The translations under genes and the position numbers were made by a program. From Botryllus schlosseri (taxonomy: Eukaryota), in NCBI GenBank assembly GCA_051294905.1, contig CM119371.1, forward strand, positions 12,774,001 through 12,838,000: a stretch of DNA of 64,000 nucleotides, in the 5' to 3' direction. Positions 3,001-47,641 of this stretch are shown here, one piece after another. Every line of letters begins with the position of its first letter. The stretch's first letter is position 1. The notes under the pieces were generated by a model. The model saw only the letters and a program-made list of their open reading frames with translations. It ran no database searches and had not been told where the DNA came from.

Positions 3001-3597
3001 ACTTTGATAGTCTCTTTGCAAAGTTACGTAAAATCGTGTGCACCTAAGATTAATATTCCAATGTGTTTAGTTTATTTTTCTGAAGGGGATGTTCATTGTT
3101 ATTTAACGAAATTATCAACTTGAGTTATGTGTAATGCTTTGGCATGTTTGGTACATATTTGTGATGCACACATCAGTCTTCGTGTTATTTTTCAAATTTA
3201 ACACAATATGTCAACTTCTTGCACATCATGCAATCAGCGCCCCTGAAGACATTTGTCCATGTGAAACGTTGAAACAAACCCTAACTAGGTCTTTGAAGAT
3301 GCTATCAGTAGTTATGTGTTCCCTTGGTATTACTGGTGTTTTGACGCATTGTCACGCATTTCTTCTTTACGCCAATTCATGCAACAATATCTCCTTTCCA
3401 GATAATAAATAGATCATAGGCCTAATCCAGCATCTGGCTCGGCACTCACAAACCCCCTGCGAAATGGATACTTAGCAATCTGACGTTTATCGCGGGGGGT
3501 CTGGGGGGCGCAGCCCCCCAGAAGCTACAATTACTTGGATATGGGGGCCCCCCCGGAGGTTTCGCCTAGGGCCCCCCCAATCATAAAGCCACCACTG
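1..3597 (+). mobile_element. Autonomous-looking hAT DNA transposon; right end at 3597, left end outside the window
   Basis: Contains the transposase ORF. GC-rich subterminal region 3490-3580 ends ...aaagccaccactg (reverse complement CAGTGGTGGCTTT, a hAT-type TIR). The following tttatgat would be the TSD, but this cannot be verified because the left end is absent. Confidence 0.75.
82..2874 (+). CDS. hAT-superfamily transposase (ZMYM1-like: TTF-type Zn finger, DUF4371, hAT C-terminal dimerisation domain), intronless, apparently intact
   Basis: 930-aa uninterrupted ORF. Zn-finger region WLVYSKSTDSVYCFHCKLF..W..H. Catalytic D (ILDCTPD), D (GQGYDNGANM), CxxH (PCGSHSLNL), TRW, and E in ASGERSFSKLKLIKTFLRSRMSQERLNGLA. 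Confidence 0.95.
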   Translation: MPRVHAKCKSGSQKRKLVQIRKESDDANFGLLHKYFKPSMSAQECSEQIEDGAAFSSMIMPDEELPVVVEGESSRDHCTGELSVTTAQPKCSDSVGGQPVGIVSKNCEITENTVVNSANISQQPSFSSTGTAEGPVRNASSGKPGAVLMESQGCCSTQSRPRFESVSDHSSTAVHSITITKEVVGKLDDIGVWPSRLSTSEKNEVVLRGPVQDDLSCVVFPVTKDRKFSVTHFQRKLKNQKLQKRSWLVYSKSTDSVYCFHCKLFSCGKSSLVHDGCSDWKNLGKILSEHEVSRDHFKALHLFSENSAALKNPTVLQKNIQSKHSELVEYWRSILKRLLAIIQYLARNHCALRGTAGHERLGDPHQGQFLGLVELLAKFDPVLAEHTQKVKNQQLPDNYLGKNIQNELISLVGKNILDQITSDVRRCTYFSVILDCTPDCSHEEQMTLVVRYVDTEGDISVREHFTGFLNVKETTSLGLTKALLDRLEELGLDIANCRGQGYDNGANMAGRNAGVQKKILDLNEHAFFMPCGSHSLNLVLCDAAKCCTRFYVYFGFLQKLYSAFSSSTKRWNILQENCSKVVKYPSDTRWESKIRSVEVVRFHLDGVIKSLLMVLQSSQVVGDGKSAADITGILKEVCSYEFILSSVIWYKVLFQVHVVSQHLQKQSIQVDIMQSMISGLLTWIRRFRLDGFQQSLDEADQLVRGIVVDGVEIQTSFQHSRQRSRIGFFDEAVDNEEILSAQKKYEVDVFNVMVDTFILSMEERFSQLGKFYSNFSTLLNIMTLKPDKISREVLAVACDKIEQFLGEDIDAGVLLGEIESFISIPNKGPGVTALDALRYLAKGGMLSDYHYLSEALRIVLTIPVSVASGERSFSKLKLIKTFLRSRMSQERLNGLALMCIESEINYGLDHNLLIDEFAKQKARKCCFLIK

Positions 3598-4037
3598 TTT
3601 ATGATAGTGAAAAATATCGCCTCTCCCCGATATTGTCATATCACGAAATGCAACCAGAATGCTTGCAATTCCAATGGGTATTTTGATCGCATGGGAAGTT
3701 ATGACTGCTGATGAGACGATTCTCAAATATGAAAATTCGGATTATACACTACACAGAGCAATGACCATGAATTGGAGTTAAATCGCGATGAGAACATCTT
3801 GTGTAAGGGTACACTTGATCCTTCCTTTAAGTTTTTTTTTATAATAGTACAACCCTGCAAACACCACCTACAAAAATCAATATTGAAATTGATTCGTTAT
3901 CACTGGCGTGACAGTGATAGTATACTGCTAACGCCAGTTGTGAGTCCAGCCATACAGTCTGCCGTGTAAAAATATGTCAATATTAAATCTATCTTTATCT
4001 CCATTTGCATGTATTTGATAGTCTTTTCAGTACCTTC

Positions 4038-4120
4038 TTATCGGTAGAATATTAGTATGGTAGACGATATATCAGACGTTACCGCACTGTTTCCATCAGT
4101 TATGGTTGTTTCATCCCAAC
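4038..4120 (-). CDS. Second copy of the intelectin-like terminal exon (alternative last exon or duplication remnant)
   Basis: Acceptor ..ataattcag|GT then TGG: GWDETTITDGNSAVTSDISSTILIFYR*. Same phase as exon 10291-10218. Flanking intron and 3' sequence are also duplicated (3605-4160 ~ 9790-10330; 5460-5610 ~ 10455-10605). Confidence 0.6.
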
Positions 4121-4429
4121 CTGAATTATGAATGATAATATTAAATAGAAGGCAGTTTAAAAAAGCGTCAGAAAGCTTGTTAAATTTGAGCCCACTAATC
4201 ATCGGTGATGAGATAACTGTCATTTGATTCTTTCTGTAGCTTAAATGAGAAGGGTGTTAATGGACGTAAGCTGTCGGAAAAATAGTGTCTCAATGATAAT
4301 TTTTAGGATAAAAACTAGCTATTGCTTCATCAGTGCACTACACCACGCATGTTAGTACTACATGGAAGCTGATATACACTCATCCAAGCCCATATTCACC
4401 TCCTCAAGCGTGACAACATTACTCATAAG

Positions 4430-5326
4430 TAGAGCAATTTTTTTTACCTAAAAAACGGAAGATTTTGACCTAAAAAATCTAAATTTTGACCTTTTCTGAC
4501 CTAAAAAAACTGAAATTTGACCAAATTTTGACCTCACGTTTGCAAATTAGGTGTTTTCGCATATAATGTTTAAAATTGTACTACTTATCTTCATTTCTTG
4601 TTGGAACTGTCTGTCATTACAAAGTAGATTGGCCTGAAAAAACGTTTTTGGCTCAAAAACTGACAGATTTTTACATGAAAAACTAGTATTTTAACAAAAT
4701 CTGGCCCTATGAAGAATTCCAGTAGTTACATTACGTATTCTGGTGGAAATAATTAAAATTTGTTGTAGTACAACGAAAGATCCTTTTCTACATTCTCGGG
4801 TAGAAAGTGTCTGTCCTTACTACGTAGCTTGCCAAGAACGGAGAAAGAACGTTCAACAGCAGTATTTGTTGGCTGACAACACTCATGTTGTCTGCACACT
4901 GCTGGTGACAAACCGTGTTGCTTCATTCTGACAATGTTGTCTATATCACAATTTTCAGCTTGCGCTTCTTGATATAAAAACCATGCAATGTCCAAGCAGT
5001 CTTGCTTCAGCTAGGATATTGCGGTACGTTGACCATAAAACCATGTCACTATTTGTTTCATTTGACCATTTATGATTCACAATGAGCAGACGATGGTCCG
5101 TTTACAACGGTAGGCCTATAAAGTAGGCTACAAGCTGTAAAATATCAAATGATAAGTTCACCGACAGCGCAAAATCTACGATACAAACGAAATGCAGAGG
5201 TCAAAAAATGTTTGACTTTGTAAACAATTCGGACAAATTTTGTAAACAATTTTGACAAATTTTGACCTAACTCTACAATTTTGACGTAATTTTGACTTTT
5301 TTGACATGTCAAAAAAAATTGCCCTA
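4430..5326. mobile_element. Non-autonomous hAT derivative carrying a transposase C-terminal remnant (CGGBP1-related clade)
   Basis: TIRs tagagcaattttttt / aaaaaaattgcccta. Perfect TSD ctcataag. ttttgacc subterminal repeats. Minus-strand ORF 4753-4995 with PTNTAVERSFSVLGKL..KDRHF. A second copy lies at 52610-56435. Confidence 0.85.
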
Positions 5327-6632
5327 CTCATAAGCATACTACTTTTCCTGGCATATGTAGGAAGAGGCAATATCTTTAAATAACTAGAGCCAATTCGGCA
5401 AAAGTAATGCCATTTTCGGACCCAGCATTACCATGCCTTTGCCGTGTGTAATTATTAATAAAGAACCATATTTAATTATCCTTATATTAATTATTGAGGT
5501 GTGACCATGAAAACAGTCTTGAAGAAAGGCCGTAGATTGCGATGATGAAGTTATATACATTACGTGTCCTCAGCAAATATATACTGGCCTGTTTTCGTTA
5601 TACGAAATGATACGAGCATATGATATTCTTTCTCACCTGCACCATCGAGGTGCTTTGGCGACGGAGTTGCGATACGGCCGTGGGGTCATCTAGTCTGCGC
5701 CCCCGTTTTTCTCCTCCATGCTATCCGTGATTTCTTAGCGTCTAGCATAGGGGTGGGCAAACTTTTGAGCTAGCGGGCCGCATTCAACACCTGAATCCAT
5801 TCGCGGGCCGCACTATATAAAATTTGGATTATAGACCAAATCGCAATATTGGTATTTGATTATATAGTGAGGACAAGAGGATAATATATGTGCCAGACAT
5901 TGCTTTTGGTGATATCGTATACGCGTCAGAAACATAGTGGCGAGATTTCATAGGTTGGTCGACCTCAATAACCAATTTGTCAAAACTTTCGAGATGAAAA
6001 TCGGTTGTCCCCGATTCTTAAAACAGGATTGAAATTTAAATCTGTGAGCAGCGATTTGTTCATAGATTTACTAATTACACTTTTGGTTCAGTTCCAGGAC
6101 ATCCAATGCTGAGAGCATCATAACCATGTTATCTTCAAACACGCTTCTACTATGTGAAGATAAAATATGAATACCTCAATTCTACGCATACAGAAAACGA
6201 ATATACCTAAGACATGCGCTAATCGTTTTTATAAGCATATCACTGAAATTGGAAATTACGAATTACGAACATTTACGGTGATATATGAATGAAACCAAAT
6301 ATGTTCCCGACATCATTTTCGCACTGGTCCGCTAAACATTGAAAATAATGAACTGCAAGCCACTGGCTGCATGTTGTATGTAGAAACCCTTAGTACAGGC
6401 TGCACGGTAACATAGGTTATATTGGAACGTAGGCCTGTCTCGTTAATGTCCATTGTCGAAAATATTTGCACACCCGAACAGAGCAAGTAGTTTCAGGTCC
6501 ATCTTTCCCAGGTTGGCATATTTGAAATCATGCTGTGACGCATAAAATTTGTCAATAGTTTCAGATCAAAGAGCTTTTTGGAGGCACAGAACTTCAATAT
6601 ACAATTAAATAGTATATTCATATTGAAATGTG

Positions 6633-6664
6633 CCCGAATATTTTCGGGTGACACTCGTCAGGGG
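6633..6664 (-). ncRNA. Minimal type-I hammerhead ribozyme in a PLE pseudo-LTR
   Basis: Minus strand reads CCC-CUGACGA-GUGUCACCC-GAAA-AUAU-UC-GGG: full core, 3-bp stem I, palindromic stem III. Confidence 0.7.
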
Positions 6665-7096
6665 TAATCGTCAGCAACTAGTAGAGAATTGGAAAGAACA
6701 TTGTATATTAACAATCGTATCACAAAATATGACGTCATCAGCATGGAATGTAATCCCAACTAAGAGAGTGCTGAATGTACCATTTTAGGATGCTACACGA
6801 ACTTCTGTAGACAAAGCTTGGGCTGATGTATTTGGATTAAGGTCGACTCGAAGGCACACAAATGAAAGCGTGAAATGCTCCTTCCAATGACGCAAAATCT
6901 TTCGTCTCGATAATTTTTCGCACAAGCGGGATTATCCAACAAATGTTTGACAATGGCATAGTTTCTGGCTTTTGATCGCTCAGCATCAAGCTTGAGCGGA
7001 TGAGTCATGGACGAGCTTTTCACCGAGCGTGATGCAAGTTTTCTGCGATTGTTGATATATAATGTTCTTTCCAATTACCTACTGGTTGCTGACAAT

Positions 7097-7132
7097 TACC
7101 ACTGACGAGTGTCACCCGAAAATATTCGGGTA
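7097..7132 (+). ncRNA. Minimal hammerhead ribozyme, inverted pLTR copy
   Basis: UACCA-CUGACGA-GUGUCACCC-GAAA-AUAU-UC-GGGUA; one mismatch in stem I next to the core. Confidence 0.6.
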
Positions 7133-7804
7133 TATTCCAATATGAATATACTGTTCAATTGCATATTGAAGTTCTGTACCTCCAAGAAGCTCTTTAATCT
7201 GAGTGTCAGCTGAAAATATGAACATACAATTCAATTGTACTTTTAGATAAGAATTTCACTTTCACGGTAGAAACTCTCTACGGGTCGGATAAGGCCCGCG
7301 AGACGTCTAGTTTTTAAATCCCGCTTGACTAATAAGTGGTAGAAGTTAGAAAACCGATTCAAGTACTGCCAGAAAGTAGGAGTAATAATTTACTGACCAC
7401 CTCACATATAAACAAATACTAATATCTTCAGAAAGTTTAGCAAGCAGCATGTTGTCCCCGAAGACAAGCGAAATGAAATTTTCGAAATGAATGCAACATA
7501 CACGATGTCAAAAGATGACACAGCTATGAACATGGAAAACGGAACGTACTGATTTGCTGATGACAACATAAATCAGGTGCATCTGTGCGCAGCAGACGAT
7601 ACGTACTCCATGGCTGACCATGCCGAGGGAAGTACGTTCACCAAAGTTATGACGGAAAACATCCTTCGCGAGACTCAATGAAAGCGCTCCTCTTCATCTT
7701 CAGTTTTTCGTCGTTGTTACTTTTTCGTTGAAGCTCCCAAGTTTTCTCAACTATCCAGACAGTAGTGTTCTCCGTCTGTTTTGGTCATTTTCTATACTGA
7801 CTAT

Positions 7805-9646
7805 CAATGTTCCCTTTAAGCTGCGCGCGTGCGCGGCCGCGCACTGCTGACGAAGTCTCCGCGCACAGAAAAACGTATCCCGCGCACAAGAAAGCCGAAG
7901 TGATGACCTTTTTTTCTGTCGTTACGCACTGTTTTCCGAGGGACCGCGCCAGTGAGTTGTTGAGTGTGCGCAGACTCGTGAAAAATTAGAGGGGATATTG
8001 AGGGGCAGTATTTGATATTGAAAGCGTGTTGCCTTTGGGGATTATTTAACGCAATTTTTCAGGGAAATAGCCACAAAATGACGACTTTCCGGATTAAACG
8101 AACGTTTGCCTTGTCGGAGCACTACGATGCACATGGTAGTAGTGGATGGGAGATGATGAACTGATCTAAAGTCTTATTCACGTCTCCAAACCCAAGATAC
8201 CCTATACCAGGCCTGAGCAAAGTGCGACCCGCGGGCCAAATTCGGCCAGCGGAGCTATTTTGTACGGCCCGCGAAAGGTTGCTTGAAATTGAAAATATAA
8301 AACCTACTTTTTAATGTTGCTGTGTATGGACTAAAACCATAGGATGTATAAATTGAAGCTGAAATTCGTTTACTATCAAGCCCATTCGTTAACATGCCGC
8401 GATTACGCAGCCTATACGTACCTCACATGCCTAATCCAGATTCGAAGTAAAGTCAAAGTAGCAAATTATACCGTTACAATTAAAGTCACAAGAAGTAACC
8501 AAACCTTCTTTCAGGGATATCTAGACTGAGCGGCCCGCGAGAGTCTGAAGAAACTTACTAAAATATTGATAAAATGTGTACTAAAAATCGAATTAATGCG
8601 GGGACTTGATTAAACTTATTCTTAGTAGGCTATATTTCACCATGATAATTCTAAGGCAGTGGGTCTCAACCTGGGGGACCCGTGCCCCTTGAGGTCATGA
8701 AAGCATCTGAAGGGGATCGCGACGCTGAGCTCAACTGAAAAATTTTCTCGCGCTCCGCGCGATTTACTTCCAATTCATAATTATAGCTCTGTATTTTAGT
8801 ATGAATTTCATATTTAAAAATCTCTCATCAATAGTCGTAACCTCCCATGCCACCAAACTATCCGTTAGGTTGGCTATAGCATGCTGGTTGCGTTTTGTGA
8901 TATGACGATAAGGGGGCGCGAAATCTACACATATATAGTAGAAGCGTGTTTAAAGCTAACATGGTTATGATCCCACCCCTAAAACCTCAGATAGTCGAGT
9001 TTCTAGGTCCAGAGGACTTCACCGTTACCAGGCAACAGCTTCAAAGTAAAAAATCTGATATGTGCGCTGATCATTGTATTTCATATTTAATTAAAAGATC
9101 TCAAGGTTTTTCAACTGAACAGTATCTAAATTATTTTGGTGATAAAAAATGTGAGAATGATAAAATTGTTCGTGTTTTTGTAAAGAGCTTGATTACAGGT
9201 GCCTCATAAACACATTAAATGTATACATCTGTGATTCGTGATATAGGCTACTTAACACAGTGAGTCAGATTTGCGCTGAGCGGTTGTATTTGGTTCGTAT
9301 TGTGTACGCTCACGGACCACTTCTAGACCAACCTGTTCCACGGGAAACAATTCGCGATATAACCACTATAGTGATTCAGTGGACAGGATACCATAGTCAT
9401 TTGTCCCCGCGGAATATGTAGGTCACTACACATTAAAAACACCTGTTTTCAAAACCGATCGTGGAAAATCAACAATATGCACGATATACAGTGTAATTAG
9501 TTCCACGAAATACACAATGCACGTCCATGAAGCATGAAGTTCGGTTTATCACCCTATGGGGGGCCTGGTTGCGCACTGTTGTCCAAGGGCCTGCGCAGTG
9601 AGTTGGCGTATTTGCGCAGACTCGTGAAAAATTAGAGGGAACATTG
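7805..9646 (-). mobile_element. Composite non-autonomous hAT (2.2-kb family), copy with a 377-bp internal deletion
   Basis: TIR caatgttccct / agggaacattg. Perfect TSD ctgactat. Otherwise the reverse complement of 17576-19794. Confidence 0.95.
8968..9209 (+). pseudogene. Captured C-terminal fragment of a Polinton/Maverick (adenain-like) cysteine protease; also at 18390-18631 and 36592-36833 on the minus strand
   Basis: IPPLKPQIVEFLG..QQLQSKKSDMCADHCISYLIKRSQGFS..YLNYF..ENDKIVRVFV fits the remembered Polinton protease pattern PP..I..FL..QLQS..S..CG.YC..FL..RS.G.S..F..ND..V..FV. Confidence 0.65.
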
Positions 9647-10217
9647 CTGACTATACCAAACCATACAATATTATGTAGGCCTTTGTAGGCATTTCTGGCC
9701 CTGCGAACGGATTTTGAGAAGTTGTCACGCAGACATGTAATGTAATGTATTCAGTGAAGCCAATAAATTTCCAATTTATTACTTTCGAGTGAAAATATCG
9801 GCCAAGGACCAAGGCGATGGAAAAATTTCGCGACCCCCGTACCCATATCGTCATATCACAAAATGCAACCAGAATGCTAGCAATCCGAACGGGTAATTCG
9901 ATCACAAATATGAAATTCGGACCATACACAGATCATTAACCATGAATTGGAGTTATATCGCGTTGAGAACCACTGCATGGTGTAAGAGTATATATACTTA
10001 ATCCTGTATGAAATTGTCAATAATCGTACGACCTTGTAAACACCACCTACAAAAATCAATATTGAAAGGTATTCGTTGTCATTGGTTTGACAGTGATAGT
10101 ATACTGCTAACGCCAGTTGCCAATCCAGCCATACAATATGTGGTGTATAAATATCTCAATATTGAATGCATATTCATCTTCATTTGCAGGAATTTGATAG
10201 TCTTTTTCAGTCCGGTC

Positions 10218-13200
10218 TCAACGGTAGAATATGAGTATAGTAGACGACATATCAGATGATACCGAACTGTTTCCATATGCTTCATCCCAACCTGATTTAC
10301 GAAAGATAATATTAAATTGAAGGCGGTTTAAATCGTGTGACAACATTGCGAGAGTAACTTTATTACTTCTTCTGTGTTGTAGCATGAACATGTTATAACA
10401 AAGAAATATATGATTCCTAACTACTACTTGAGACGCACACGAACTATTCATTATTAAAGAACCAAATAATATTATTTATATAATAGTTAATAATATGTGA
10501 CCATGAAAAGAGTCTTGAAGAAAGGCCGTAGTTGGCGTAGGAGATTACGGTGATGTGTGTCTTCGACAATCAAATAGGCTACTTACCGGTTTTCGTTATA
10601 CCAAATGCAGGTCAGCAATTAAAATACCATGATCCATAGGTCGGATTCTATTGACTGCTTACCAGCAAAGTCACCGCATGTTCCACGAGTCGTAATATCA
10701 TTTGATATTCCCCCAATGCACACGTCTTCCGGTCTCGCCGTTGTGAGAAGACTGAATAGGAATTATTTTAGGTTTCAAGTAGCCTACTAATCCAATGCAA
10801 TTTTGTCTTCGTTGAACAGGACAGATGGGAATAGCACATAACAAAAAAACTATGAAGACTTCACTCGACTATGCCATTTATCGAAATTCGAAACGATTTT
10901 GTGGAAGTAATGTTACAATTATGACAATATGAATTGACGACGAAACAACGGTACAAATACGATACTGTTATCATTAGTGCTGACAAAAACAGTTGAAAAT
11001 ATTTCATTTTTTTGAAATCAAGTACAAATTCTTCCAATTGAATTATTCGAAAAATCTGTAACTGACCCCTTTGATATTTCGAATCAACTAAATGTCCGGC
11101 AATAAAGACAATTCCCGTTCACCCTAATTAAGACACAGTCCTGCATTAGCATTATGCAAGTATTGCTACGTACCTGAATCCTGGACATAGTGCGTTTGGA
11201 TATCCTCCGTAGTTGTAGGCTCGAAACTGCATATTTCCCGGAACAATGAATCGGTTCATGTAGGAAGGTATCCGATTTAGAAGATTTACTTCTGAACCTT
11301 TGTCAAATGTAACTGGCACGGTAACTGTTGCCATGTCGTGCCATTCTTAAAAACAAGTTTAGCGATAACATATTTGCGTGCATCGTACTTTCGATGCATG
11401 GGTTGCATTAGTATATTGGTAATATTTGACTTATGCCTGATGCACACTGGCCTAGCGGCGCAACTCAAATTCGAATCGCCTGCTATGCTGCGCACAATAA
11501 TTCTACTACTCGATTGTGAATCGATTCTCGACCTGGACTCGAGTCATTGCGACCGACATTTCATTGTAATTTCAAAGAATAGTAAAATAACCACACTATT
11601 GGGATGCCGTCTATTGGTACTGGTACTTGAAAATGCGACCAGAAACTGCTAAAGGTGGGGAAATGAGTATATTCTAAATGTGAACCATTCGATATCACCA
11701 AACAGAGTTATAAAATGCGGGATTAACTAGCAGTCAACACAATGACTTGGACTCGGGCTCGAGTCATAATACCATGACTCGAACTCGTCTCTCACTTTAC
11801 TGACTTGGACTCGGACTTGACTCGGGGGCGAATTAAAAATGACTCGACTTGACTCGTGTCTAAACTATAAAATTGAGATTGACTTGGGACTCGGAGTCTT
11901 GGTTGCAACCCTTAACTCTATGACCTGTTTACACTGATGGTATCGACTGCTTAACTGTTTAAGACTAAAATAACACCATATGCTTTCATATTAGGCTCAT
12001 ATTGCTTTCACTCAGCCGTTACCATTCGGCTTTCAGTTTTCATTGAACTTCATACTGCCCATTGATATAACATTTGACCGAGTCTTACCGTCCATAAGAT
12101 ACGGGAAAACGGTGACTCGTTGCAGCATCTGTGCGGTGATATCATCAATTTCCGATTGATTGTAGGCCTGTCCTCCATTTCTATTTAGATGAGAAAATAT
12201 GTCATTGTTGCCCGAACAACCCAAAATTAGGTGAATCTATTGGTCGCGTTTAAATATTGTCAACATCTTTAGACACAGAAATTTAGAGGGCATACCTTAC
12301 TTTATGCAGGGCTGTCAAACTCGACTGGCGTCGTGGGCCGGATTTAAACCTTGAAATCGCTCGCGGGCCGGACCATTCAAATGGTCCCAATATGCTACCG
12401 CAAAATCGACACCCTCGCTTTTTCCATGAATATTTTATTATCAATCGTATCCTACGGATCATAGGGTGGGTTATATTCCAGCTACACATTCATTCGCAAA
12501 CAACGGAATTTCGAAAATAAAATCTAAGATTGGTCGTTTGAATCGAACCTATAAAACACTGACTCTAACGACGGATAAGTTGGCAAATGTCTATGTTCCC
12601 TTTGTTTTAGTCGTACTCTGGCGTTAACTGTGGGTGTATACGTTGTGAGAAATACAACAGATTAAATTGTAAACGCGGACATTAGAAATTGGTCCTTCAT
12701 TATTAAAACGCGTTTAGGGTTTCTGTGTCTATCTTGAACCTTTTAAGTCAGACGTGATACAGTAGTGCGACGAAATGTACTTTAATTGTACTCTTTTGTT
12801 ACTATTATATTATCCATGCGACCTGTATATAACAGTTTCGCTGTGGCTTTTCCGCTTCTGCAAATAACTACTTTTGGGTTCATTCTCCCATAAAAATCTG
12901 AACTCTGTGTCGCGGAAGTTGATGTCAGTGTCACTAATTTGTTTCTGATCGTGACTATATAACTATAACACCGCTGTAGGATGATCATGATGGGGCCTCT
13001 GATCTTGACATTTGCTCCCTTGTGGGCAATATTACTTACAATAAGATTTCAACATTTGTCAGTAATGTGCTGGATATCACAGGCATTTTTAATCTACTCA
13101 GAATTGTTTTGCGGGCCAGATGAAATCGTCTGGCGGGTCGGATGCAGCCCGCGGGCCGTATGTTTGACACCCCTGCTCTACGCGCTAAGATGTTTAATAA

Positions 13201-16200: not shown

Positions 16201-19200
16201 AATGACTGCTATTAATATAATTTTCCAAATATTATCTTTAATTCGAGACCGCATTATATTTAGAGCGCAGTGCATTGTTCGAAATCGCTATTCGACCAAG
16301 ATTTTTATTATTCTTAACTAATCAGTTATGGTTCGTTTTTGTCCATCCATGGAAGTTACATTTGGTATCTAGTATAGATGTTCATCGATCCATGCATTAA
16401 TGCTGTTAGTGGAAAAACACCTTGCGCCTACCTGGTTAGCAAAGTGTAACCAAACAAAATCCGAGATTGCCGACCCTGAATACGATAGCTTGCGTAGCAG
16501 TCAGACTCCTGGGATTTGATAAACTGAGATGGTGGTATTGATCTCCAGTCCTGGGGAATATATATAGAAATATTAAAATGTCGTTGACATTCTTATGATT
16601 ATACTGTAACAGCATTTGCAATTAGTCTGAGCATACCTTGTCGTTTGAAATATAAAAGTGAATACGACATTCGGACTTTCGCGTTGTACCCAATGGCGTG
16701 AACTGGATGGCATGATACTGCATGATGAAGTCTCCATTCGTCACATTGTTCTGGAATCCAGTCGTTTTGAACAGCTTACAACGTGTACCCATCCCCTATA
16801 ATAACATCAAATAATTCTAAAGATACAAAGAGTGTCCGCGAATAGGATCTAACTGCGATCTCGTGAATCTTTGATTTTCCTATGTCGTTTCTTATAGCCA
16901 TAAGAAAGGTGAATGGCGTAGTCAGAGCGCTGAAAGAAATTTCATCTAAATCTTCACTTCTGAAAAATAAACGGTACATAGAATAATCGTGGCAGTACGG
17001 ATTAATCATGCATAATGATATAGGTCGTAGTCGTTGACAGTGACTTATAAGTAGGGCTGGGCGAAATCGAGTACCTGAGTGATTCGATTCTGAATCACGT
17101 AATATGCTTCGAGTCGAGTCGAGTAATCGAGTATCACTCGTTATGACGTCATATTCGAATGTAATATGTCAAAGCTCTAATATGTACCTTTTATGCGATC
17201 TCAAAGAATATAATGCCTGTTATCCATCGCATTAAAGATACTTTGGTATTATTCAACCATACCGATTTCATTGCACTTGGTGACAATGTTGTGGGATGAT
17301 CATGACTTCAGAAACATGCTATTCCCAGTAACGTTGGTAGCTTTGTACTACATGTTACGTATGATACCATACGGGCAATCAATGTTTCAAGGCTCCAACA
17401 GTGAAAATTAGTATCGAAACTATAATTCTCGTTGATAAATTAACTTTCAGTGGCGAGAAACGTATAATTTCAGTACTCGAAAAAATCGACTTTTACTACT
17501 CGACTCGAATCATTAAAATTAATACTCGATTCAGATTCGAGTACTCGAATCATTGTGCCCAGCCCTACTTATAAGCAATGTTCCCTCTAATTTTTCACGA
17601 GTCTGCGCAAATACGCCAACTCACTGCGCAGGCCCTTGGACAACAGTGCGCAACCAGGCCCCCCATAGGGTGATAAACCGAACTTCTGGGGGGCTTCGCC
17701 CCCCAGACCCCCCTCGGGCTGCACGCTTTCCCCCGCTACTAATCATCTGTGTCTGGTATTCGTTTGGTGGGCGTTCCAACTAAACGCGCGAAGCGCTAAA
17801 ATTTTCTATAATTCATGATCAAATCGGTCAATATCATCGAGAAATGCATATATTTCTATCAATTTTAATCCTGTCTCTGCTCACGTAATCACATTTGCAG
17901 GTAAAGCTGATCGAGTGAGATGTGTTAATAGTATAATTGCTCGCTCGTGAAGCGTAAAATACCGGAAGTCAAGAATGTTGCATTTCGAAGCCAGAAACGC
18001 AGCATTTCGAGCTAGCTAGCAGTCGAAAATCAGCCTATGGAGCTTCGGAAAAGCGCCATTGTGGTGCTTCATGGACGTGCATTGTGTATTTCGTGGAACT
18101 AATTACACTGTATATCGTGCATATTGTTGATTTTCCACGATCGGTTTTGAAAACAGGTGTTTTTAATGTGTAGTGACCTACATATTCCGCGGGGACAAAT
18201 GACTATGGTATCCTGTCCACTGAATCACTATAGTGGTTATATCGCGAATTGTTTCCCGTGGAACAGGTTGGTCTAGAAGTGGTCCGTGAGCGTACACAAT
18301 ACGAACCAAATACAACCGCTCAGCGCAAATCTGACTCACTGTGTTAAGTAGCCTATATCACGAATCACAGATGTATACATTTAATGTGTTTATGAGGCAC
18401 CTGTAATCAAGCTCTTTACAAAAACACGAACAATTTTATCATTCTCACATTTTTTATCACCAAAATAATTTAGATACTGTTCAGTTGAAAAACCTTGAGA
18501 TCTTTTAATTAAATATGAAATACAATGATCAGCGCACATATCAGATTTTTTACTTTGAAGCTGTTGCCTGGTAACGGTGAAGTCCTCTGGACCTAGAAAC
18601 TCGACTATCTGAGGTTTTAGGGGTGGGATCATAACCATGTTAGCTTTAAACACGCTTCTACTATATATGTGTAGATTTCGCGCCCCCTTATCGTCATATC
18701 ACAAAACGCAACCAGCATGCTATAGCCAACCTAACGGATAGTTTGGTGGCATGGGAGGTTACGACTATTGATGAGAGATTTTTAAATATGAAATTCATAC
18801 TAAAATACAGAGCTATAATTATGAATTGGAAGTAAATCGCGCGGAGCGCGAGAAAATTTTTCAGTTGAGCTCAGCGTCGCGATCCCCTTCAGATGCTTTC
18901 ATGACCTCAAGGGGCACGGGTCCCCCAGGTTGAGACCCACTGCCTTAGAATTATCATGGTGAAATATAGCCTACTAAGAATAAGTTTAATCAAGTCCCCG
19001 CATTAATTCGATTTTTAGTACACATTTTATCAATATTTTAGTAAGTTTCTTCAGACTCTCGCGGGCCGCTCAGTCTAGATATCCCTGAAAGAAGGTTTGG
19101 TTACTTCTTGTGACTTTAATTGTAACGGTATAATTTGCTACTTTGACTTTACTTCGAATCTGGATTAGGCATGTGAGGTACGTATAGGCTGCGTAATCGC

Positions 19201-22200
19201 GGCATGTTAACGAATGGGCTTGATAGTAAACGAATTTCAGCTTCAATTTATACATCCTATGGTTTTAGTCCATACACAGCAACATTAAAAAGTAGGTTTT
19301 ATATTTTCAATTTCAAGCAACCTTTCGCGGGCCGTACAAAATAGCTCCGCTGGCCGAATTTGGCCCGCGGGTCGCACTTTGCTCAGGCCTGGTATAGGGT
19401 ATCTTGGGTTTGGAGACGTGAATAAGACTTTAGATCAGTTCATCATCTCCCATCCACTACTACCATGTGCATCGTAGTGCTCCGACAAGGCAAACGTTCG
19501 TTTAATCCGGAAAGTCGTCATTTTGTGGCTATTTCCCTGAAAAATTGCGTTAAATAATCCCCAAAGGCAACACGCTTTCAATATCAAATACTGCCCCTCA
19601 ATATCCCCTCTAATTTTTCACGAGTCTGCGCACACTCAACAACTCACTGGCGCGGTCCCTCGGAAAACAGTGCGTAACGACAGAAAAAAAGGTCATCACT
19701 TCGGCTTTCTTGTGCGCGGGATACGTTTTTCTGTGCGCGGAGACTTCGTCAGCAGTGCGCGGCCGCGCACGCGCGCAGCTTAAAGGGAACATTGCTTATA
19801 AGTCGAAGCGTATGGTCTGGATATCACGATACCTTGGGCCAGTATCCGCCGCATGTACGGAGTTCGCTCTCATAAGCTTTATTAATAATTTCAAACGCAT
19901 AGTTCCAAATCAATCGTGGGAAATTATGCAACTTTTTGATCTTCCCGACTTCCATTATGAAGACGAATGATGGGAATTCTCTTCAACGCCTAAACACATC
20001 ATAATTAGGGCTGGGTACAATGATTCGAGTACTCGAATCTGAATCGAGTATCAATTTTAGTGATTCGAGTCGAGTAGTAAAATACGATTTTTCGAGTATT
20101 GAAATTATACGCTATACGCAACTGAAAGTTAATTTACTAACGAGAATATCAGTTTTGATGCTAATTTCCACCATGGAGGCCTCGAAACCTTGATTGGCCA
20201 TGTCGCAGCATACGAGACATATTACAAAGCTACGCACGTTACTGGAAACAACACATGTCCGAAGTCATGATCATCCCACAAAATTGTCAAGAAGTGAAAT
20301 GAAGTCGGTATGGTCGAAAAAATACCAAAAGTATCTTTGATGTTACGGATAACAGGCATTATATTCTTTGTGATGGCATAAAAGGTACATATTTGAACTT
20401 TGACATTGTACATTATGCTGTGACGTCATAATGAGTGATACTCGAATACTCGACTCGACTCGAAACGTAATGCGTGATTCAGAATCGAATCACTCAGTTG
20501 CTCGATTTTGCCCAGCCATATCCTAATTCCGAGAGATCGGACCCTATATGTCAATATATATACATATATAATATGTATATATGGATACGAATTCGCAAAA
20601 CACGAGCCTAGTTATGGGGTGGGCAATTCTTGACAAGCGAGCCGTATGCAATCTTTCATGAACCCGCTGCGGCACTCCATAGGCTTAAAGCAAAAAAAAA
20701 TGTATATTTCATGGATAATTTTATGAAATCATATTTTATGTATATATTGTCTATAACATTAATTCCCAAGCGCGGCCCCGCGGGCAGCATGCGGCCCCCA
20801 GCTAGCCTTCTTGCGGCCCCAAAAAATATTAAGAAATCGAGTTTATGACAAAAAATTAAATTGATATTTATAAAATACACTAGCATGGCTTGGAGTCTGG
20901 AGTTTTTAATTAAGATTGCAGGAAAGTCGTGAGTAGACTGCTATCGTTACTTCCAGTTGAAGGAGCAGTAGCTAGAGATATAGGTAAAGACAGGACTGTA
21001 ACTGCCGCACGCCAAACCCTCAATGAAGGGGGGGGGGGGGCGAGCTCGAACGGGGCTCAAAATTATTTCGTGAATTAGCATAAGTTATAGAGTACTTTTT
21101 GGAACATTTTTACATCTTTTTCAATTTTTTGTTGCTGTGGGCGTGATTTCATGCTGCCAAATATCTTGATTTTTGGGTGCTCATCCCCAAGAAAAAATGC
21201 GCAAGATTTACAGAAATGGGCATTGGGCATATCGGCGTTAGCCTGACGAAGTGCTGTTTCGTTCCTGCCAACGGGTAGGCCTATATACGCCCGAAGATAT
21301 TTAATTATTACTGAGGGACCCTACCATTAAACACACTTCCCTCGGCTCTAGCAGAGAGAGGATAAAAATTGATGGCAATACATATGCAATTCCCGATCAT
21401 ATTGACCGATTCAATCGTGAATTACAGAAAATTTTCGCGCTTCGCGCGTGTACGCGATAAAACCTGACTCGCTAACTCGCCCCGAAAGCAGTATAATTGG
21501 TAGTCCTATAGATCACGACCGAAGCGTCCGCATAATTTGATAGGTCCGGTCTTTATCGGAAGCTAGTTTCGCACTGATTCGAAAAATGCAAATTGAAATC
21601 TCGCCAGGGCAAAAAAACTACTCCGAAGTAGCCTCCAAAGGTCGACTGTTCTAAACAATGGGAGCGCACCAACACAATGACCATACAATGGCCAATGGCG
21701 TCAAGTGATTGATCGGAACAATGCCAATTTTCATATTATGACGACATTTTGGGTCCGTTTAATTGCCCTGGTATTCGTGCGGCCCCGACCGTGCTCTGAA
21801 ATTATAAATTTGACCCTCACACCGAAAAAGTTTGGGAACCACCGGTCTATAAGCTATGATCGTGTAAGTTTTAAAGTTGTTTTCTCATTTTACTGAAGTT
21901 GTCAAGGTTTTACTTTGAGATTACATATGTAGTTTACTTAGGTAGGACTAAATTACAACAGTGGTATGATTTTAATCTAGGAATGAAACAGATCGTGCGT
22001 CTTATGATTGGTTTTATGTGAACGGGAATAGGTTCAAATGGCGCTTTGTGTTGATGGTTTTCAACCTTGGGCACAGATAAGAAAAATATGATACCTATAG
22101 ATATAGGTAATGAGCAGGACCATTTTTATATGACCTTAAAAAATCAATTATATGACTTTATTTTCGGGAAAATATGACTTTATATGACTTTATGCGAAAA

Positions 22201-25200
22201 TCGTGTATTTTTTCATGTAACCAACGTCACTCGTGGAACTGACGAGTAAACCATGAACAACATAACAGTAATACACATCCATTTTTAGTTTAAACCACTT
22301 TTGTAGTACAGTTTCGTGTATGTGGAGTGTTGGAGTCTTTAAAGTTACGATTTGTCTTTGTAGCTCCATAATTTGTTTCACATCGTTTTTGTCCAATCGG
22401 TTCTTAAAGTAATTTTCGAGCTCAAGCGGATCTTTTCCGAAATCGCGGGCATTTAGATCAGCATGAGCCTCTTTGATAGTGTACGTACAACTTTCCATTT
22501 TCAGTATCTAAGTTTGAAATATTATTGTAGTGGTGGTATATTTCTGTTAACTGACTCGTCAACTTTGGATCGTTCACTGAATCTTTGACGCTCTTTACAT
22601 TAACTCCTTCAGCGTCCCATGCGTTGACTATTTCTTTCACTTGTGGAAGTCTGAACTTCAAATGACGTCCCACTTCAGTGCACAGAAGTAAAACAGATTG
22701 TGTAGCAACACAAGGCAATGTGTGACCTCATAATGCAATGTGTGACCTCATAGGTCTGCGACTGTAATGTTATGTAGGCTAACCTTACAGTTTGCCTTCG
22801 TTCAATCAGAAATTGCCTTACTTTCTTAGTGCGTAATCGTTTCAATTGGCACTTTTTATTTAAAGTATACAACAATATGACTTTATAACTCAAATATGAC
22901 GTAACCAGAAAAATATGACTTTATAACTTTCTTAACCCCATATGGATGCGGTTTTTGCGTTAAAATTGGTTTCACGACTTACTGATGCATAGAAAAAATA
23001 TGACTTTAATGACTTTAAATGGCTCTAGTAATGATATAGAGAGCAAATATCAGGCATCTTTTCACATTTAACAATCTAAGTTACGAAGCAATCTCTTTCC
23101 TTACCTGAATTCCATTCCATATGGTACATATTGTTTGATTCCAGCAGGATTCCCAACTTTTATATACACCTGCGTTGTGGGAATATATACTTAACAAGTG
23201 CTGCCACATAAAGAGATAAAAAGGAAGTGAGGCGACAGCTCAGCAATCATGCAGAACACACGGCACTTTCGGACACCACGGTTTCACGACATATATTCAC
23301 ATTCATAGTCACTTGAAGATATTATTAAACTTCGATATACAGATGCTTTCCCTACATTCCCCTTGCGCAGGAAAATATGTGTGTTAAGTTATAGCGATGT
23401 GAGGTTATATGTTGAGTAACAACAAGATATTTTCCAAGGTCAAGTTGAGGTCGTCTCCGGTCCGAATATGGTAATGAACTCTATACTGTTTCTACGTAAA
23501 CTCATATAACGCTGCATTCAAATACTAGGACTTGTATTCCTAAATTAGCAGAATCAACATTTCACAATGTGTCGAATAATCTCATCTCATCCTATATAAG
23601 AAGGAAGGGAAAAACAGTGAATCGATACTGAATCGAGTATTAGACTTTGAGTCGGGTGTTCGAGTATCATTGATTATGTAGTCAAAACAGTAAGCAGAGT
23701 GCTTTATGAAAGTTCAAATATTTCCCCATTTTGCAACCACGTGTGATGGCGGCGGCTCTTCATCACTTTGAAGGTAATTTGGTAGTTTTTCGACATACCT
23801 ATTTCATTGCACTTTCTGACAGTGATGTATGGGTGAATCATATGGCTTTACGTGACGTCATTTCTACTTACGCGCCTGGAATTGTAGTACAGTTTTCATA
23901 TAATGACATACGACTTTTCGAGGCTTCGGGGCTGTAACAGTAGGGCTATCATACGTTCTCTGTTAAATTAATCCTCGTATCCGAATTCAAATTGGAGTAG
24001 TCAAATCATTGAGTCCAGCTTCACATATAAATAACGGGTCGAGTATTCAGTGTCACTCATTATGACGTAACAGCAGAATGTTCTCTGTTAAAGTTCAAAT
24101 ATGTACCTTTTATGCCACCAATAAGAACATACTGCTTGTTATCCGTCAGATTAAAGATACTTTGGCATTTTTTCGACCGTACCGATTGCATCGCACTTGT
24201 TGACAATATTGTGGGATGATATGACTTCGGAAATGTTTTATTTCCACTAACGTTCAGAACTTTGCATTTTGTCTCGTATGTTGCGACACGACTAATCGAA
24301 GTTTCGAGGCTTCCTCAGTGGAAAATAGTATCAATACTACAATTCTCGTTAGTAAGTTAACGTTTATTTAAGAGAAGCGTCTAATTTCAGTACTCGAAAA
24401 AATCGTATTTTACTACTCGACTCGAATCATTAAAATTAATACTCGATTCAGATTCGAGTACTCGAATCATTGTGCTCAGCCCTAGTAACAATTCGATATG
24501 CAAAGTTAAATCGGATGCAGGGTATATTTGAAGAAGACGAAATTGTTACCTATTTTTCACGAGTCTGCGCGCACTCACGAACTCACTGCGCGGTCCCCCG
24601 GACAACAGTGCGTAACGAGTAAAAGAAGGTCATCACTTTCCTCCTCGCCACCTCATCCGCGTCAGCGGTGTCTTACAAAAGCCTAGTGGTGGGCCGTGCT
24701 ATAAGTCGGCAGTTACGGAAAATAAGAAGAATACCGGCCTGGTGTAAATGACCATAGTAGTCGACAAACACCATGAATACCCCAAAACAAAAACAAAACA
24801 AGGTCATCACTTCGGCTTTTTTGTGCGCAGCTTAGATTTTTTGTTGGCATAAACAGTATCAGCAATGCGCAATTGTGCACGCGCGCAGCGTAGAGGGAAC
24901 ATTGGTCGATGGCCGCATCATATTCCTTCTTCTGCAGCATATTGGCCACTCATGGACTAAAGTATATCAATATTGGATTTAACTTGTCGCGGTACCTGCT
25001 AGAAATCTATCTCCTCGTAAAGCTTGGTCATTTGGGGATCCCGAAGCCGATTTCTAAGGGTCACGCGCATCTTAGAGGGAATATTGCTTGCCACGTCGAT
25101 ATTTTGGTGAATAATTTATGTTTTCGCTAGAAAACTCATCAAAATGGCACCGAATTAGAAGTCATAAAGTTGCAAGTTTTGTGGAATAGCAAATCGCCGT

Positions 25201-35777: not shown

Positions 35778-37996
35778 CAATGTTCCCTCTAATTTTTCAC
35801 GAGTCTGCGCAAATACGCCAACTCACTGCGCAGGCCCTTGGACAACAGTGCGCAACCAGGCCCCCCATAGGGTGATAAACCGAACTTCTGGGGGGCTTCG
35901 CCCCCCAGACCCCCCTCGGGCTGCACGCTTTCCCCCGCTACTAATCATCTGTGTCTGGTATTCGTTTGGTGGGCGTTCCAACTAAACGCGCGAAGCGCTA
36001 AAATTTTCTATAATTCATGATCAAATCGGTCAATATCATCGAGAAATGCATATATTTCTATCAATTTTAATCCTGTCTCTGCTCACGTAATCACATTTGC
36101 AGGTAAAGCTGATCGAGTGAGATGTGTTAATAGTATAATTGCTCGCTCGTGAAGCGTAAAATACCGGAAGTCAAGAATGTTGCATTTCGAAGCCAGAAAC
36201 GCAGCATTTCGAGCTAGCTAGCAGTCGAAAATCAGCCTATGGAGCTTCGGAAAAGCGCCATTGTGGTGCTTCATGGACGTGCATTGTGTATTTCGTGGAA
36301 CTAATTACACTGTATATCGTGCATATTGTTGATTTTCCACGATCGGTTTTGAAAACAGGTGTTTTTAATGTGTAGTGACCTACATATTCCGCGGGGACAA
36401 ATGACTATGGTATCCTGTCCACTGAATCACTATAGTGGTTATATCGCGAATTGTTTCCCGTGGAACAGGTTGGTCTAGAAGTGGTCCGTGAGCGTACACA
36501 ATACGAACCAAATACAACCGCTCAGCGCAAATCTGACTCACTGTGTTAAGTAGCCTATATCACGAATCACAGATGTATACATTTAATGTGTTTATGAGGC
36601 ACCTGTAATCAAGCTCTTTACAAAAACACGAACAATTTTATCATTCTCACATTTTTTATCACCAAAATAATTTAGATACTGTTCAGTTGAAAAACCTTGA
36701 GATCTTTTAATTAAATATGAAATACAATGATCAGCGCACATATCAGATTTTTTACTTTGAAGCTGTTGCCTGGTAACGGTGAAGTCCTCTGGACCTAGAA
36801 ACTCGACTATCTGAGGTTTTAGGGGTGGGATCATAACCATGTTAGCTTTAAACACGCTTCTACTATATATGTGTAGATTTCGCGCCCCCTTATCGTCATA
36901 TCACAAAACGCAACCAGCATGCTATAGCCAACCTAACGGATAGTTTGGTGGCATGGGAGGTTACGACTATTGATGAGAGATTTTTAAATATGAAATTCAT
37001 ACTAAAATACAGAGCTATAATTATGAATTGGAAGTAAATCGCGCGGAGCGCGAGAAAATTTTTCAGTTGAGCTCAGCGTCGCGATCCCCTTCAGATGCTT
37101 TCATGACCTCAAGGGGCACGGGTCCCCCAGGTTGAGACCCACTGCCTTAGAATTATCATGGTGAAATATAGCCTACTAAGAATAAGTTTAATCAAGTCCC
37201 CGCATTAATTCGATTTTTAGTACACATTTTATCAATATTTTAGTAAGTTTCTTCAGACTCTCGCGGGCCGCTCAGTCTAGATATCCCTGAAAGAAGGTTT
37301 GGTTACTTCTTGTGACTTTAATTGTAACGGTATAATTTGCTACTTTGACTTTACTTCGAATCTGGATTAGGCATGTGAGGTACGTATAGGCTGCGTAATC
37401 GCGGCATGTTAACGAATGGGCTTGATAGTAAACGAATTTCAGCTTCAATTTATACATCCTATGGTTTTAGTCCATACACAGCAACATTAAAAAGTAGGTT
37501 TTATATTTTCAATTTCAAGCAACCTTTCGCGGGCCGTACAAAATAGCTCCGCTGGCCGAATTTGGCCCGCGGGTCGCACTTTGCTCAGGCCTGGTATAGG
37601 GTATCTTGGGTTTGGAGACGTGAATAAGACTTTAGATCAGTTCATCATCTCCCATCCACTACTACCATGTGCATCGTAGTGCTCCGACAAGGCAAACGTT
37701 CGTTTAATCCGGAAAGTCGTCATTTTGTGGCTATTTCCCTGAAAAATTGCGTTAAATAATCCCCAAAGGCAACACGCTTTCAATATCAAATACTGCCCCT
37801 CAATATCCCCTCTAATTTTTCACGAGTCTGCGCACACTCAACAACTCACTGGCGCGGTCCCTCGGAAAACAGTGCGTAACGACAGAAAAAAAGGTCATCA
37901 CTTCGGCTTTCTTGTGCGCGGGATACGTTTTTCTGTGCGCGGAGACTTCGTCAGCAGTGCGCGGCCGCGCACGCGCGCAGCTTAAAGGGAACATTG
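35778..37996 (+). mobile_element. Composite non-autonomous hAT, 2219 bp
   Basis: Same TIRs. Perfect TSD ttgattag. Same length and same ORF-track translations as 17576-19794. Confidence 0.95.
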
Positions 37997-45244: not shown

Positions 45245-46832
45245 CAGGGGCGGGCAACTTCTCCGGCTGGCGGGCCAGATATGGGAAAATGAACCACTTG
45301 GCGGGCCGGATTACAGAATATATACATTATACAGTATACGTCAATCGCGTAATTATCCACCTATACAAGGAATCCGTTGTATTCAATGTAAACTTCAAGT
45401 TTGAAGCATAGAGTCTAAAAACAGCATTCATTAGATTTATTTACAACAGCTATTGAAGTCAATCAGACATCTGTGGTCGTTCAATATTGTCAACTAATTT
45501 TTTGAACTCTGGTTGCATGTCATATGCGGAAACCCTAAGAAAAGACTGCACGTGAACATCAGTCATATTGGAACGCAGCCTTCCTCGTTAGTGTTCGTGG
45601 CAGTGTTGGGATCAAGTCACTACCTTCGAGTCACAAGTAATCTCACGTCATTGCACATTTTGACTCGAGTCAAGTCAAGTCACGTCACTTGATTTTTAAA
45701 GGTGACTCGGGTCAATAAGTCAAGCCACTCGATTTTTGAAGGTGACTCTAGTCAAGTCAATTCAAGTCAAGTCAAGTCACGAGTCAGGTCACTAGTCAAG
45801 TCAAGTTGAAATTTCAAAGAACTAGGCATGATTCAAAGTCATTACATTTTGCTAACTGTTTTAAATACAGATGAAGTACCCATTTATTTTGGAATTGACG
45901 AACGAATAAACAGTTTGTTTGTTTGTTTTGAGACATTCATGGTGTTTGTCGACTACTACGGTCATTTACACCAGGTCAATATTATTCATATTTATTCCTC
46001 AACTGCCGACTTATAGCACGGCCCACTTCTAGGCTTTGTGTAAGACACCGCTTATGCAGATTAAGTGGCGGGAAGCGGAATGACTAGTTGATTTTACTCG
46101 CAAAAGACGGTGTATCGTTCACACATACACAGAACTGCTCAACTACGCAAGTATAGCGATGTACCGTCAGTCTTTAAAATATCAGCCAAAATACAGGATA
46201 ACATACGAAACCTCAGAAAGTTTAAAAATGATATAGTTCAATACCCTACCCACCTACTTATCCACGATATACAATTATAAACGTATGAGCTATATTCGTT
46301 TGATTTAAATTATATACAACAGGGTTGGTTGTGGTGAGCAAGTTTACGACAACGTAAGCTGGTTGTATAAGCTGCGTTTGCGATCAATTCATTTGTGATA
46401 TAACAATGGAGGCTCGGCGAACATACACGAGATACAGCGATTTAGTCAACATCAATTACTGGATGACTATAAATTGACTCGTAACTTTTGCTTCGAGTCA
46501 CGACTCACGAGTCAATCTGCATTTCTGAAGAGTCGAGTCAAGTCAAGTCATTTTTCCAAGGTGACTCGAGTCAAGTCAAGTCATACTAAAAAGGTGACTC
46601 GAGTCATCCCAACATTGGTTCATGGTAGAATATGTACGTAGACCCGAACTGAGCAACTAGTTTAATGTCCATCTTTCTCAGGCTCACAAACTTGTATTCA
46701 TTCTGTGACGCATAAAATTTGTCAATACATTCACAATGAAATTTCTCTTTCAGAGTAAAAACTCTCAGCGGGCCGGACAAAATCCCTCCACGGGCCGGAT
46801 CCGGCCCGTGGGCCGTATGTTGCCCGCCCCTG
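45245..46832. mobile_element. Charlie-like hAT MITE with nested MITE 45601-46617 and a SINE piece
   Basis: caggggcgggcaac / gttgcccgcccctg, TSD gcctaatc. Inner element cagtgttgggat / atcccaacattg, TSD gttcgtgg / gttcatgg, (agtca)n arrays. Confidence 0.9.
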
Positions 46833-47474: not shown

Positions 47475-47641
47475 CAATGTTCCCTCACCAACTCACTGCG
47501 CAAACCCTTGGAAAACAGTGCGTAACGACTAAAAAAAATATCATCACTTCGGATTTTTTGTGCGCATCTCAGATTTTCTGTGCGCACATACCGTGAAAGC
47601 ACTTCGCCTTTGCGCATGTGCGCTTCTTAGAGGGAACATTG
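47475..47641 (+). mobile_element. 167-bp simple caatgttccct-family MITE
   Basis: TIR caatgttccct / agggaacattg; perfect TSD gccgtagg. Confidence 0.9.

Follow-up and report, generated by a model that had tools for sequence, protein, structure and literature searches.

The locus raises the question of how a piece of a viral protease gene came to lie inside a repeated DNA transposon of Botryllus schlosseri, and whether it has a function there. The window, i.e., the whole stretch of 64,000 nucleotides that was analysed (contig CM119371.1, positions 12,774,001 to 12,838,000), harbors three copies of this transposon (Table 1). Our analysis indicates that it is probably a hAT-type element, young and non-autonomous, with passenger DNA as its cargo, in which the protease piece rides without function.

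Table 1. The three copies of the element in the window, the parts of copy 2, and a related free-standing MITE.
Feature	Positions	Strand	Remarks
Copy 1	7805..9646	-	1842 bp; 378-bp internal deletion; TSD CTGACTAT
Left TSD of copy 2, CTTATAAG, palindrome	17568..17575	.	doubles as right TSD of older MITE 17052-17567
Copy 2, composite non-autonomous hAT-type element	17576..19794	+	2219 bp; inside ~16.6-kb intron of intelectin-like gene
Outer left end, intact TIR and subterminal sequence	17576..17657	+	84% like inner left end
Pieces of other host repeat families	17683..17926	.	78-94% identical to copies elsewhere in window; high depth in public runs
Lower-copy passenger DNA 3' of protease stop	17927..18389	.	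no Pfam or viral-locus match
C-terminal half of adenain-type (Polinton-like) cysteine protease gene	18390..18617	-	
Ten bases, start of another MITE family's TIR	18618..18627	+	P-P-L codons on minus strand
Internally deleted piece of MITE family with TIR at 18618	18628..19067	+	second MITE nested inside
End fragment of further MITE family	19327..19390	+	77% to 46768-46823
Whole 196-bp short MITE of same hAT family	19599..19794	+	right end of element
Right TSD of copy 2, CTTATAAG	19795..19802	.	
Copy 3	35778..37996	+	same sequence as copy 2; TSD TTGATTAG
Free-standing 167-bp MITE	47475..47641	+	same TIR; own TSD GCCGTAGG; empty form of element's family

Copies 2 and 3 were identical in 2219 of 2219 bases (17576-19794 versus 35778-37996). 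Copy 1, on the opposite strand, matched copy 2 over 111 + 1730 bases with no mismatch, and a single base stands in place of 378 bases (equivalent to 17687-18064). An 8-bp target site duplication (TSD) was present for all three copies and for the free MITE at 47475. The TSDs differed among the copies (CTGACTAT, CTTATAAG, and TTGATTAG for copies 1, 2, and 3), and the flanks of each copy were unrelated to those of the others. The initial annotation had described three copies with an individual 8-bp TSD each and no point differences, which was borne out; the deletion in copy 1 was left unstated. Its claim of a very recent movement as a unit is supported by the identical copies with separate TSDs. 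It is hardly credible that the three copies arose as an artefact of assembly or polishing, or else that the protease piece stems from a host exon or from the hAT itself. Polishing can produce perfect identity, but the own TSD and unrelated flanks of each copy argue against an artefact, as does the presence of the element, or of part of it, in 20 public runs from 8 studies.

The perfect terminal inverted repeat (TIR) comprised 11 bp and started with CAATG; the extended comparison gave 14 of 15 with one mismatch. The 11-mer had 9 occurrences in the window where 0.05 were expected, and none of 100 shuffles gave 9. hAT-type termini have the consensus YARNG, with which the CAATG start agrees. No transposase was detected in the six-frame reading of the element, and the copy 2 frames of 55 aa or more gave no Pfam match at E<=0.01. 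The 8-bp TSDs, the 11-bp TIR, and the lack of an internal transposase support the earlier classification as a non-autonomous hAT element. A hAT transposase ORF at 70-2874 was considered as the likely partner and set aside because the TIR 11-mer was absent nearby. TIR-pattern scans of metagenome and viral contigs for an autonomous hAT with the same ends revealed 0 loci. A text match to the TIR in the available part of a paper on Anolis came from TcMar families, which have TA TSDs, and was discarded. A bacterial promoter scan, inapplicable to an animal element, stayed at chance level.

Inside the element, the initial annotation had recognized the C-terminal half of an adenain/Polinton-type protease. 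We confirmed this: the piece showed 50% identity to a full-length relative, P0002 (E 3e-18), and hhalign of the fragment against the adenain-like family profile gave a probability of 99.1. The PDB matches of the same profile were all viral proteases (4 of 4), including adenain and ASFV S273R. A host exon or a hAT part would agree with the Pfam scan of the fragment itself, which returned 0 families, and with the four proteins closest to the fragment, which had no gene context; the profile probability and the exclusively viral PDB matches argue against it. The annotation had allowed for a lack of any adenain-like profile match, or for a match to a host exon or the hAT, and with this profile probability neither was the case. 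VanA, the sole PDB match of the direct fragment search, was weak (E 0.011) and was treated as chance. In the best viral loci the protease family appears to adjoin Polinton genes. The best locus of P0002, L001, encoded an A32 ATPase and an rve integrase, and locus L005 encoded pPolB, an ATPase, and a DJR capsid; the L001/L005 proteases shared only 31-36% identity with the queries P0007/P0002.

The catalytic Cys and the oxyanion Gln were both present and invariant across a 20-row alignment. The Gln/Cys motif put forward earlier holds for these two residues, but the fragment diverges from the family pattern immediately past the Cys. The quoted residues are real and lie in the minus-strand stop-to-stop frame 18390-18698, while translating 18390-18631 from its first base gives a different frame. 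The catalytic His/Asp half was absent, with only profile positions 73-148 of 158 matching in any frame of the window, and the piece is predicted to yield no working enzyme, in line with the earlier assessment. Against the passenger reading, its 79 codons are free of stops and its branch is not long (0.33 versus 0.28 for P0002), so that any decay was brief or minor; even so, a neutral frame was computed to have a 56% chance of still being open at 5% divergence.

The identified cargo was repeat-derived and virus-derived, other repeats of the window matching at least 971 of the 2219 bases of the element. Judged by its sequence, the DNA between the outer left end and the right-end MITE is pieced together from host repeats. 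The 9-mer at the junction of protease and MITE (18618 region) occurred five times in the window, in the three copies and at the MITE starts 5749 and 57452. Contigs spanned this junction in runs X1, X2, and X6, and loose ends were seen at 18628 and 18673 in public-run contigs. The MITE (18618-19067) supplies the ATG of the protease frame, since the piece 18628..19067 holds the ATGs in frame with the 82 codons, and perhaps the "PP" motif too. The notion of "captured endogenous-virus DNA" was correct as to a Polinton-type piece, but the cargo is better read as a block of host DNA whose Polinton relic another MITE had already cut.

The inner left TIR at 19599 carried 2 substitutions in 11 bases. 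Such a mutated inner left repeat of the right-end MITE is expected if two neighbouring hAT copies move jointly with the intervening DNA, and it favours the passenger reading. In the interior of the element we found no inner right end, i.e., no right-end remnant of the first MITE, and sequential gap-fill captures may therefore be possible. We consider it rather unlikely that a short hAT MITE was filled by gap repair or template switching, with the protease half from a young Polinton, the MITE pieces from other loci, and the inner left end as one more captured piece. Short pieces of several repeat families joined without own TSDs would fit such a history, the open, little-decayed frame suits a young source, and the ten junction bases, which suit the MITE TIR as well as the P-P-L of the protease, could be microhomology. 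In the available text, Tan et al. prefer such routes for animals (PMC8277862). However, a complete short MITE, its left TIR mutated, makes up the right end, which is the pattern of neighbouring insertions; protein searches gave no close full-length donor; and the protease bin was no deeper than neighbouring element bins in 4/4 runs.

When a full-length donor was sought by word matching among proteins of 143-2000 aa, 0 of 15 candidates scored; it was a weak search, which missed P0002, too. The alignment search gave 15 matches from 320 candidates, the only near-identical one being P0001, a chimeric MITE-protease frame predicted as protein by the gene caller on a public contig. Scanning P0002 against viral contigs gave 0 confirmed loci, and of 184 stretches from scanning the fragment against metagenome contigs, none was confirmed. 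A tblastx comparison of the element with 80 viral loci for other Polinton core genes gave 0 matches outside the protease.

The element was multi-copy in all four runs examined and differed by ~1% from the clan in the window; the majority alleles in the runs, and likewise P0001, differed from this clan. Because of this ~1% difference the three copies in the window look like local hopping. Run depth was taken from contigs, and depth sums do not equal copy numbers. No RNA run was listed among those containing the element. Runs X1 and X6, which had a DNA-like repeat profile, contained the short-form joints 17605>19657 and 17656>19684. None of the 15 joints listed (670 further joints) was 17575>19795, the joint of an empty site. 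One X3 contig starts at the right TSD, which hints at an empty site but no more.

An antiviral role of the element is unsupported, and the public runs, which consisted of contigs, gave no support for a small-RNA or antisense function. We regard it as very unlikely that a high-copy, still-moving hAT spreads the protease piece with the MITE start codon and that it serves the host as a mobile device against Polintons, the element being favoured through small RNAs or through a chimeric protein of 81-82 residues that disturbs capsid maturation. An ATG-started open frame across the MITE start and the protease C-half does exist, the gene caller predicted P0001, and the piece was retained in 4/4 runs and in 3/3 window copies, including the deleted copy 1. 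On the other hand, frameshifted variants occurred in run X3, with one-base losses inside the protease frame at 18450 (533 of 4698 depth, 11%) and at 18546 (1744 of 5120, 34%); these fall at T-runs and were seen in one of the four runs. Moreover, the piece (228 bp) makes up about 10% of the element, and protein searches revealed no close target.

The orientation in the host gene also argues against this role. We take the gene around copy 2 to be intelectin-like on the basis of its motifs; its exons were placed from these motifs and splice sites, and a homologue search gave no match. The protease frame of copy 2 runs in the same sense as this gene, in the one proven intron. Copy 1 sits 3' of the intelectin-like stop, ahead of a duplicated last exon. 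Of the proposed spread "into introns in both orientations", the intronic position of copy 2 was verified; only copy 2 was so placed, and its protease frame is sense, not antisense.

For the element as a carrier of passenger DNA we propose the following course of events. Judging from the homology, a Polinton-like element would have left a protease gene in the genome. Another MITE family would have cut this gene where the His/Asp half ends, and deletions would have trimmed the region; the junction is visible in the sequence and the order of events is our suggestion. The relic would then have come to lie between two copies of a single short hAT MITE, which stood in direct orientation at a distance of ~2 kb. 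With the inner ends lost or mutated, a transposase acting in trans could pair the outer TIRs and move the whole block; the inner end is indeed mutated, and the mechanism is borrowed from the plant neighbouring-insertion model. Contig depth suggests a spread of the composite to at least tens of copies with ~1% diversification, and one sub-variant would have hopped locally and recently, giving the three identical copies.

As a passenger carrier, the element is of modest importance. It offers a clear case, in an animal, of a hAT that carries cargo and is multicopy, which is rare according to Tan et al., and it displays the mutated inner TIR that the plant model predicts, together with local hopping and double insertion at one target. 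Such hitchhiking can inflate Polinton gene matches in genomes and metagenomes, P0001 being this chimeric frame called as protein. If the anti-Polinton reading were true, a transposon would be amplifying an invertebrate's antiviral memory of an endogenous DNA virus; should small RNAs directed at a live Polinton be shown, the element would become a case in which mobile antiviral memory can be tested. Literature searches did not find a Polinton piece as such cargo, which is weak evidence of absence.

The element belongs to the known cargo-carrying non-autonomous hATs, like the Anolis hobo-N families and multicopy Pack-TIRs; the comparisons below refer to the available parts of the sources. hobo_AC of Anolis carolinensis comprises young non-autonomous hATs of 1.3-3.4 kb with common ends and interiors of incorporated genomic DNA, in which older TE fragments were, according to the authors, included fortuitously (PMC3014272). 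Our element is likewise young, non-autonomous, and cargo-carrying; its cargo includes a Polinton-like protease piece, whereas that of hobo_AC consists of Penelope, SINE, CR1, and Chapaev, and hobo_AC has a known autonomous partner, which TIR-pattern scans did not reveal for our element (PMC3014272). Tan et al. reported 370 Pack-TIRs in animals (208 hAT, only 4 multicopy), requiring an identified parental copy, 90% or more identity, and flanks without TEs (PMC8277862). With multicopy Pack-TIRs such as Pack-hAT-N8_XT our element shares hAT ends around captured DNA and several copies with distinct TSDs; it differs in its repeat-derived cargo without identified parent, its inner mutated TIR, and an apparently higher copy number (PMC8277862). 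In the neighbouring-insertion model from plants, two adjacent copies and the intervening DNA move jointly once the inner TIRs are deleted or mutated, and Pack-TYPE elements hop locally within 100 kb (PMC8903248). Both have foreign DNA that is enclosed by TIRs and has moved repeatedly as one unit, and both have the mutated inner TIR, but plant Pack-TYPE elements are defined by fragments of host coding genes (PMC8903248). In our animal element, no host gene fragment was found among the identified cargo, to which 17927-18389 and parts of 19068-19598 do not belong. Since 96% of vertebrate Maverick copies are defective (PMC11161782; PMC8097293), Maverick relics are a common raw material. The Polinton/Maverick maturation protease (vUlp1, adenain-like, Peptidase_C5) is of the same sequence family as our piece, which comprises the C-half only. 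Teratorn, a piggyBac-herpesvirus fusion, is also a DNA transposon moving virus-derived DNA; it spans 180 kb, mostly virus-derived, while the present element carries 228 bp of one broken gene.

Copies 2 and 3 of the element (2219 bases) showed no difference in pairwise comparison, and copy 1, which is inverted, differed only by a 378-bp deletion with one base in its place. Each copy had its own 8-bp TSD and a perfect 11-bp TIR, and the TIR was counted nine times in the window versus a chance expectation of 0.05. The window consisted of MITE-rich animal DNA. Segmental duplication was excluded as the source of the copies, since their flanks were unrelated. The recently moved three-copy element of the initial annotation was real; its statement of no visible point differences held for the bases shared and did not spell out the deletion in copy 1. 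Copy 2 was part of a double insertion, with a palindromic target common to copy 2 and an older MITE. Such double insertions are a known route to tandem TEs (10.1101/158386).

Features of the window besides the three element copies
Feature	Position	Strand	Remarks
Double insertion at one palindromic target	17044-17575 and 19795-19802		TSD, older 516-bp MITE, TSD, element, TSD
Further old members, nested or broken, of the hAT MITE family of the element	24552-24904 and 25086
Putative intelectin-like gene	29195-10220	-	six exons found; copy 2 in a 16.6-kb intron
Duplicate of its last exon	~4121-4043	-	open frame and stop
hAT transposase frame	70-2874	+	934 codons, uninterrupted; DUF4371, Dimer_Tnp_hAT
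Exons, presumably of an LDLa-bearing glycoprotein-hormone-receptor-like GPCR	~60757, ~60448 and 48152-47826	-	no Pfam match

The right end of the element was made up of a whole short MITE (19599-19794). This MITE has a left end that resembled the outer left end at 84% and carried two substitutions in its TIR; at 47475 a free relative of 167 bp was flanked by a TSD of its own. At least 971 of the 2219 bases matched other repeats within the window. The ten bases before 18628 matched the start of the TIR of the MITE family at 57452-58600, and the protease piece (18390-18617, minus strand) terminated at the MITE junction. As 18628-19067 was collinear with this compound MITE, the in-frame ATGs of the protease frame are, as judged from sequence, supplied by the MITE. 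The "PP" motif may also be MITE-derived, or else reflect microhomology. At 17950-18075 the passenger DNA held a 22-bp tandem pair and what we take to be ETS- and YY1-like motifs, all of which the deleted copy 1 lacked.

The protease frame (18390-18698, minus strand, 102 codons) had no direct Pfam match. A phmmer search against 1.84 billion proteins gave 34 matches at E<=0.001, three of them long proteins with several short matches. The top match, P0001 (100%), is encoded on a 744-bp public contig; the second, P0002 (151 aa), had 50% identity (E 3e-18). Peptidase_C5 was listed at E<=1 in 21 of the 23 matches scanned and reached the cut-off in six; no family was listed for P0002 itself. The fragment matched an 11-protein alignment, built without it and without P0002, with a probability of 99.1, and all four PDB matches of this alignment were ASFV S273R and adenovirus proteases. 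The Atlas showed P0002 in the neighborhood of Peptidase_C5 clusters (27-38% of members; most frequent phylum Preplasmiviricota). These results supported the adenain-like identity proposed initially, and a host exon or an artefact is hardly credible. The His/Asp half was missing as proposed: Gln and Cys were present, His and Asp absent, and only profile positions 73-148 of 158 were covered in any window frame.

The best of 80 viral loci for P0002 (L001) had an A32 ATPase and an rve integrase, and another locus, L005, carries pPolB, an ATPase and a double-jelly-roll (DJR) capsid. In a 35-row tree the fragment clustered with P0002, P0004 and P0024 (97/90), in a set separate from six presumed giant-virus-type proteases, a type that is our reading and is named by the contigs of two of the six. 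Because of these Polinton-type genes and the tree grouping, a Polinton origin is likely, though seen only through relatives at 31-36% identity. The Polinton-like viral contig L005:568-10904 also showed an adenovirus protein X-like match and a phospholipase A2-like gene.

Of 24 listed public sequencing runs, 20 (8 studies; 0.49-0.65 of words) contained the element, whole or in part, and short forms of the family were visible as joints in two runs. Depth in element-specific bins was 3084-7199 in run X3 (most left-flank bins 23-76), 112-156 in X1 (flank 0-1), 25-91 in X6 (flank 0-5) and 4-5 in X2 (flank 0); one flank bin contains another repeat. From depth we infer tens of copies or more, although such sums cannot be read as copy numbers and individual X3 sites go down to 235. 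X2 bears the label of another organism (B); its element depth of about 4 and its lack of single-copy flanks are consistent with host DNA present in traces. The protease bin was not deeper than its neighbors in these four runs, so that there was no sign of a sizeable further donor family with >=85% identity; a low-copy donor would escape. The majority form differed from the window at ~1% of sites (X2: 8/781 and 8/751), and its protease frame stopped one codon earlier, like P0001. Given this difference, the three copies are a clan of one sub-variant. Local hopping likely produced them, since two more copies within 64 kb have P ~7e-4 even under an assumed 300 copies in 0.5 Gb.

The exons of the intelectin-like gene flanked copy 2 on both sides in compatible phase, and the protease frame was sense to the host transcript. 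Of the annotated insertions into introns in both orientations, only that of copy 2 was supported; copy 1 lay 3' of the stop, ahead of the duplicated last exon. This exon is contained in a duplicated block (3609-4161 versus 9820-10332, 74% identical) and may serve as an alternative last exon; copy 1 separates the two last exons. The hAT transposase had an apparent right end near 3597, different from that of the element, and is possibly part of an active autonomous element.

We consider it quite probable that two neighboring hAT MITEs moved together with repeat-rich host DNA holding a Polinton protease relic. The relic would have been MITE-truncated before capture, and both MITEs and the stretch between them would have been mobilized as one by transposase provided in trans, with the cargo as a passive passenger; the ends, TSDs, mutated inner TIR, homology, truncation and occurrence across studies were observed, and the order of events, the donor, the copy number and the lack of function are our deduction. 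No inner right end of the first MITE was found in the element, which counts against neighboring MITEs. Stepwise gap-fill capture of the interior is unlikely. The protease frame was stop-free and not fast-evolving, which counts against a passenger without function, but at 5% divergence a neutral frame would still be free of stops in 56% of cases. One-base losses inside the frame were seen in X3 at 11% and 34% of depth and not in X1, X2 or X6. A host benefit through an antiviral role of the element is very improbable. Most probably the element is ordinary, though real and correctly recognized initially.

No host-gene fragment was identified as cargo within the element, and none of the papers listed in literature searches was seen to describe Polinton DNA as cargo of such elements. 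Animal Pack-TIRs are for the most part hAT and seldom multicopy (PMC8277862), both the neighboring-insertion model and local hopping were described in plants (PMC8903248), and the majority of vertebrate Mavericks are defective relics (PMC8097293). The element of the window works like a Pack element. The hobo_AC elements of Anolis, and their non-autonomous families likewise, are described as taking in genomic DNA with old TE fragments (PMC3014272).
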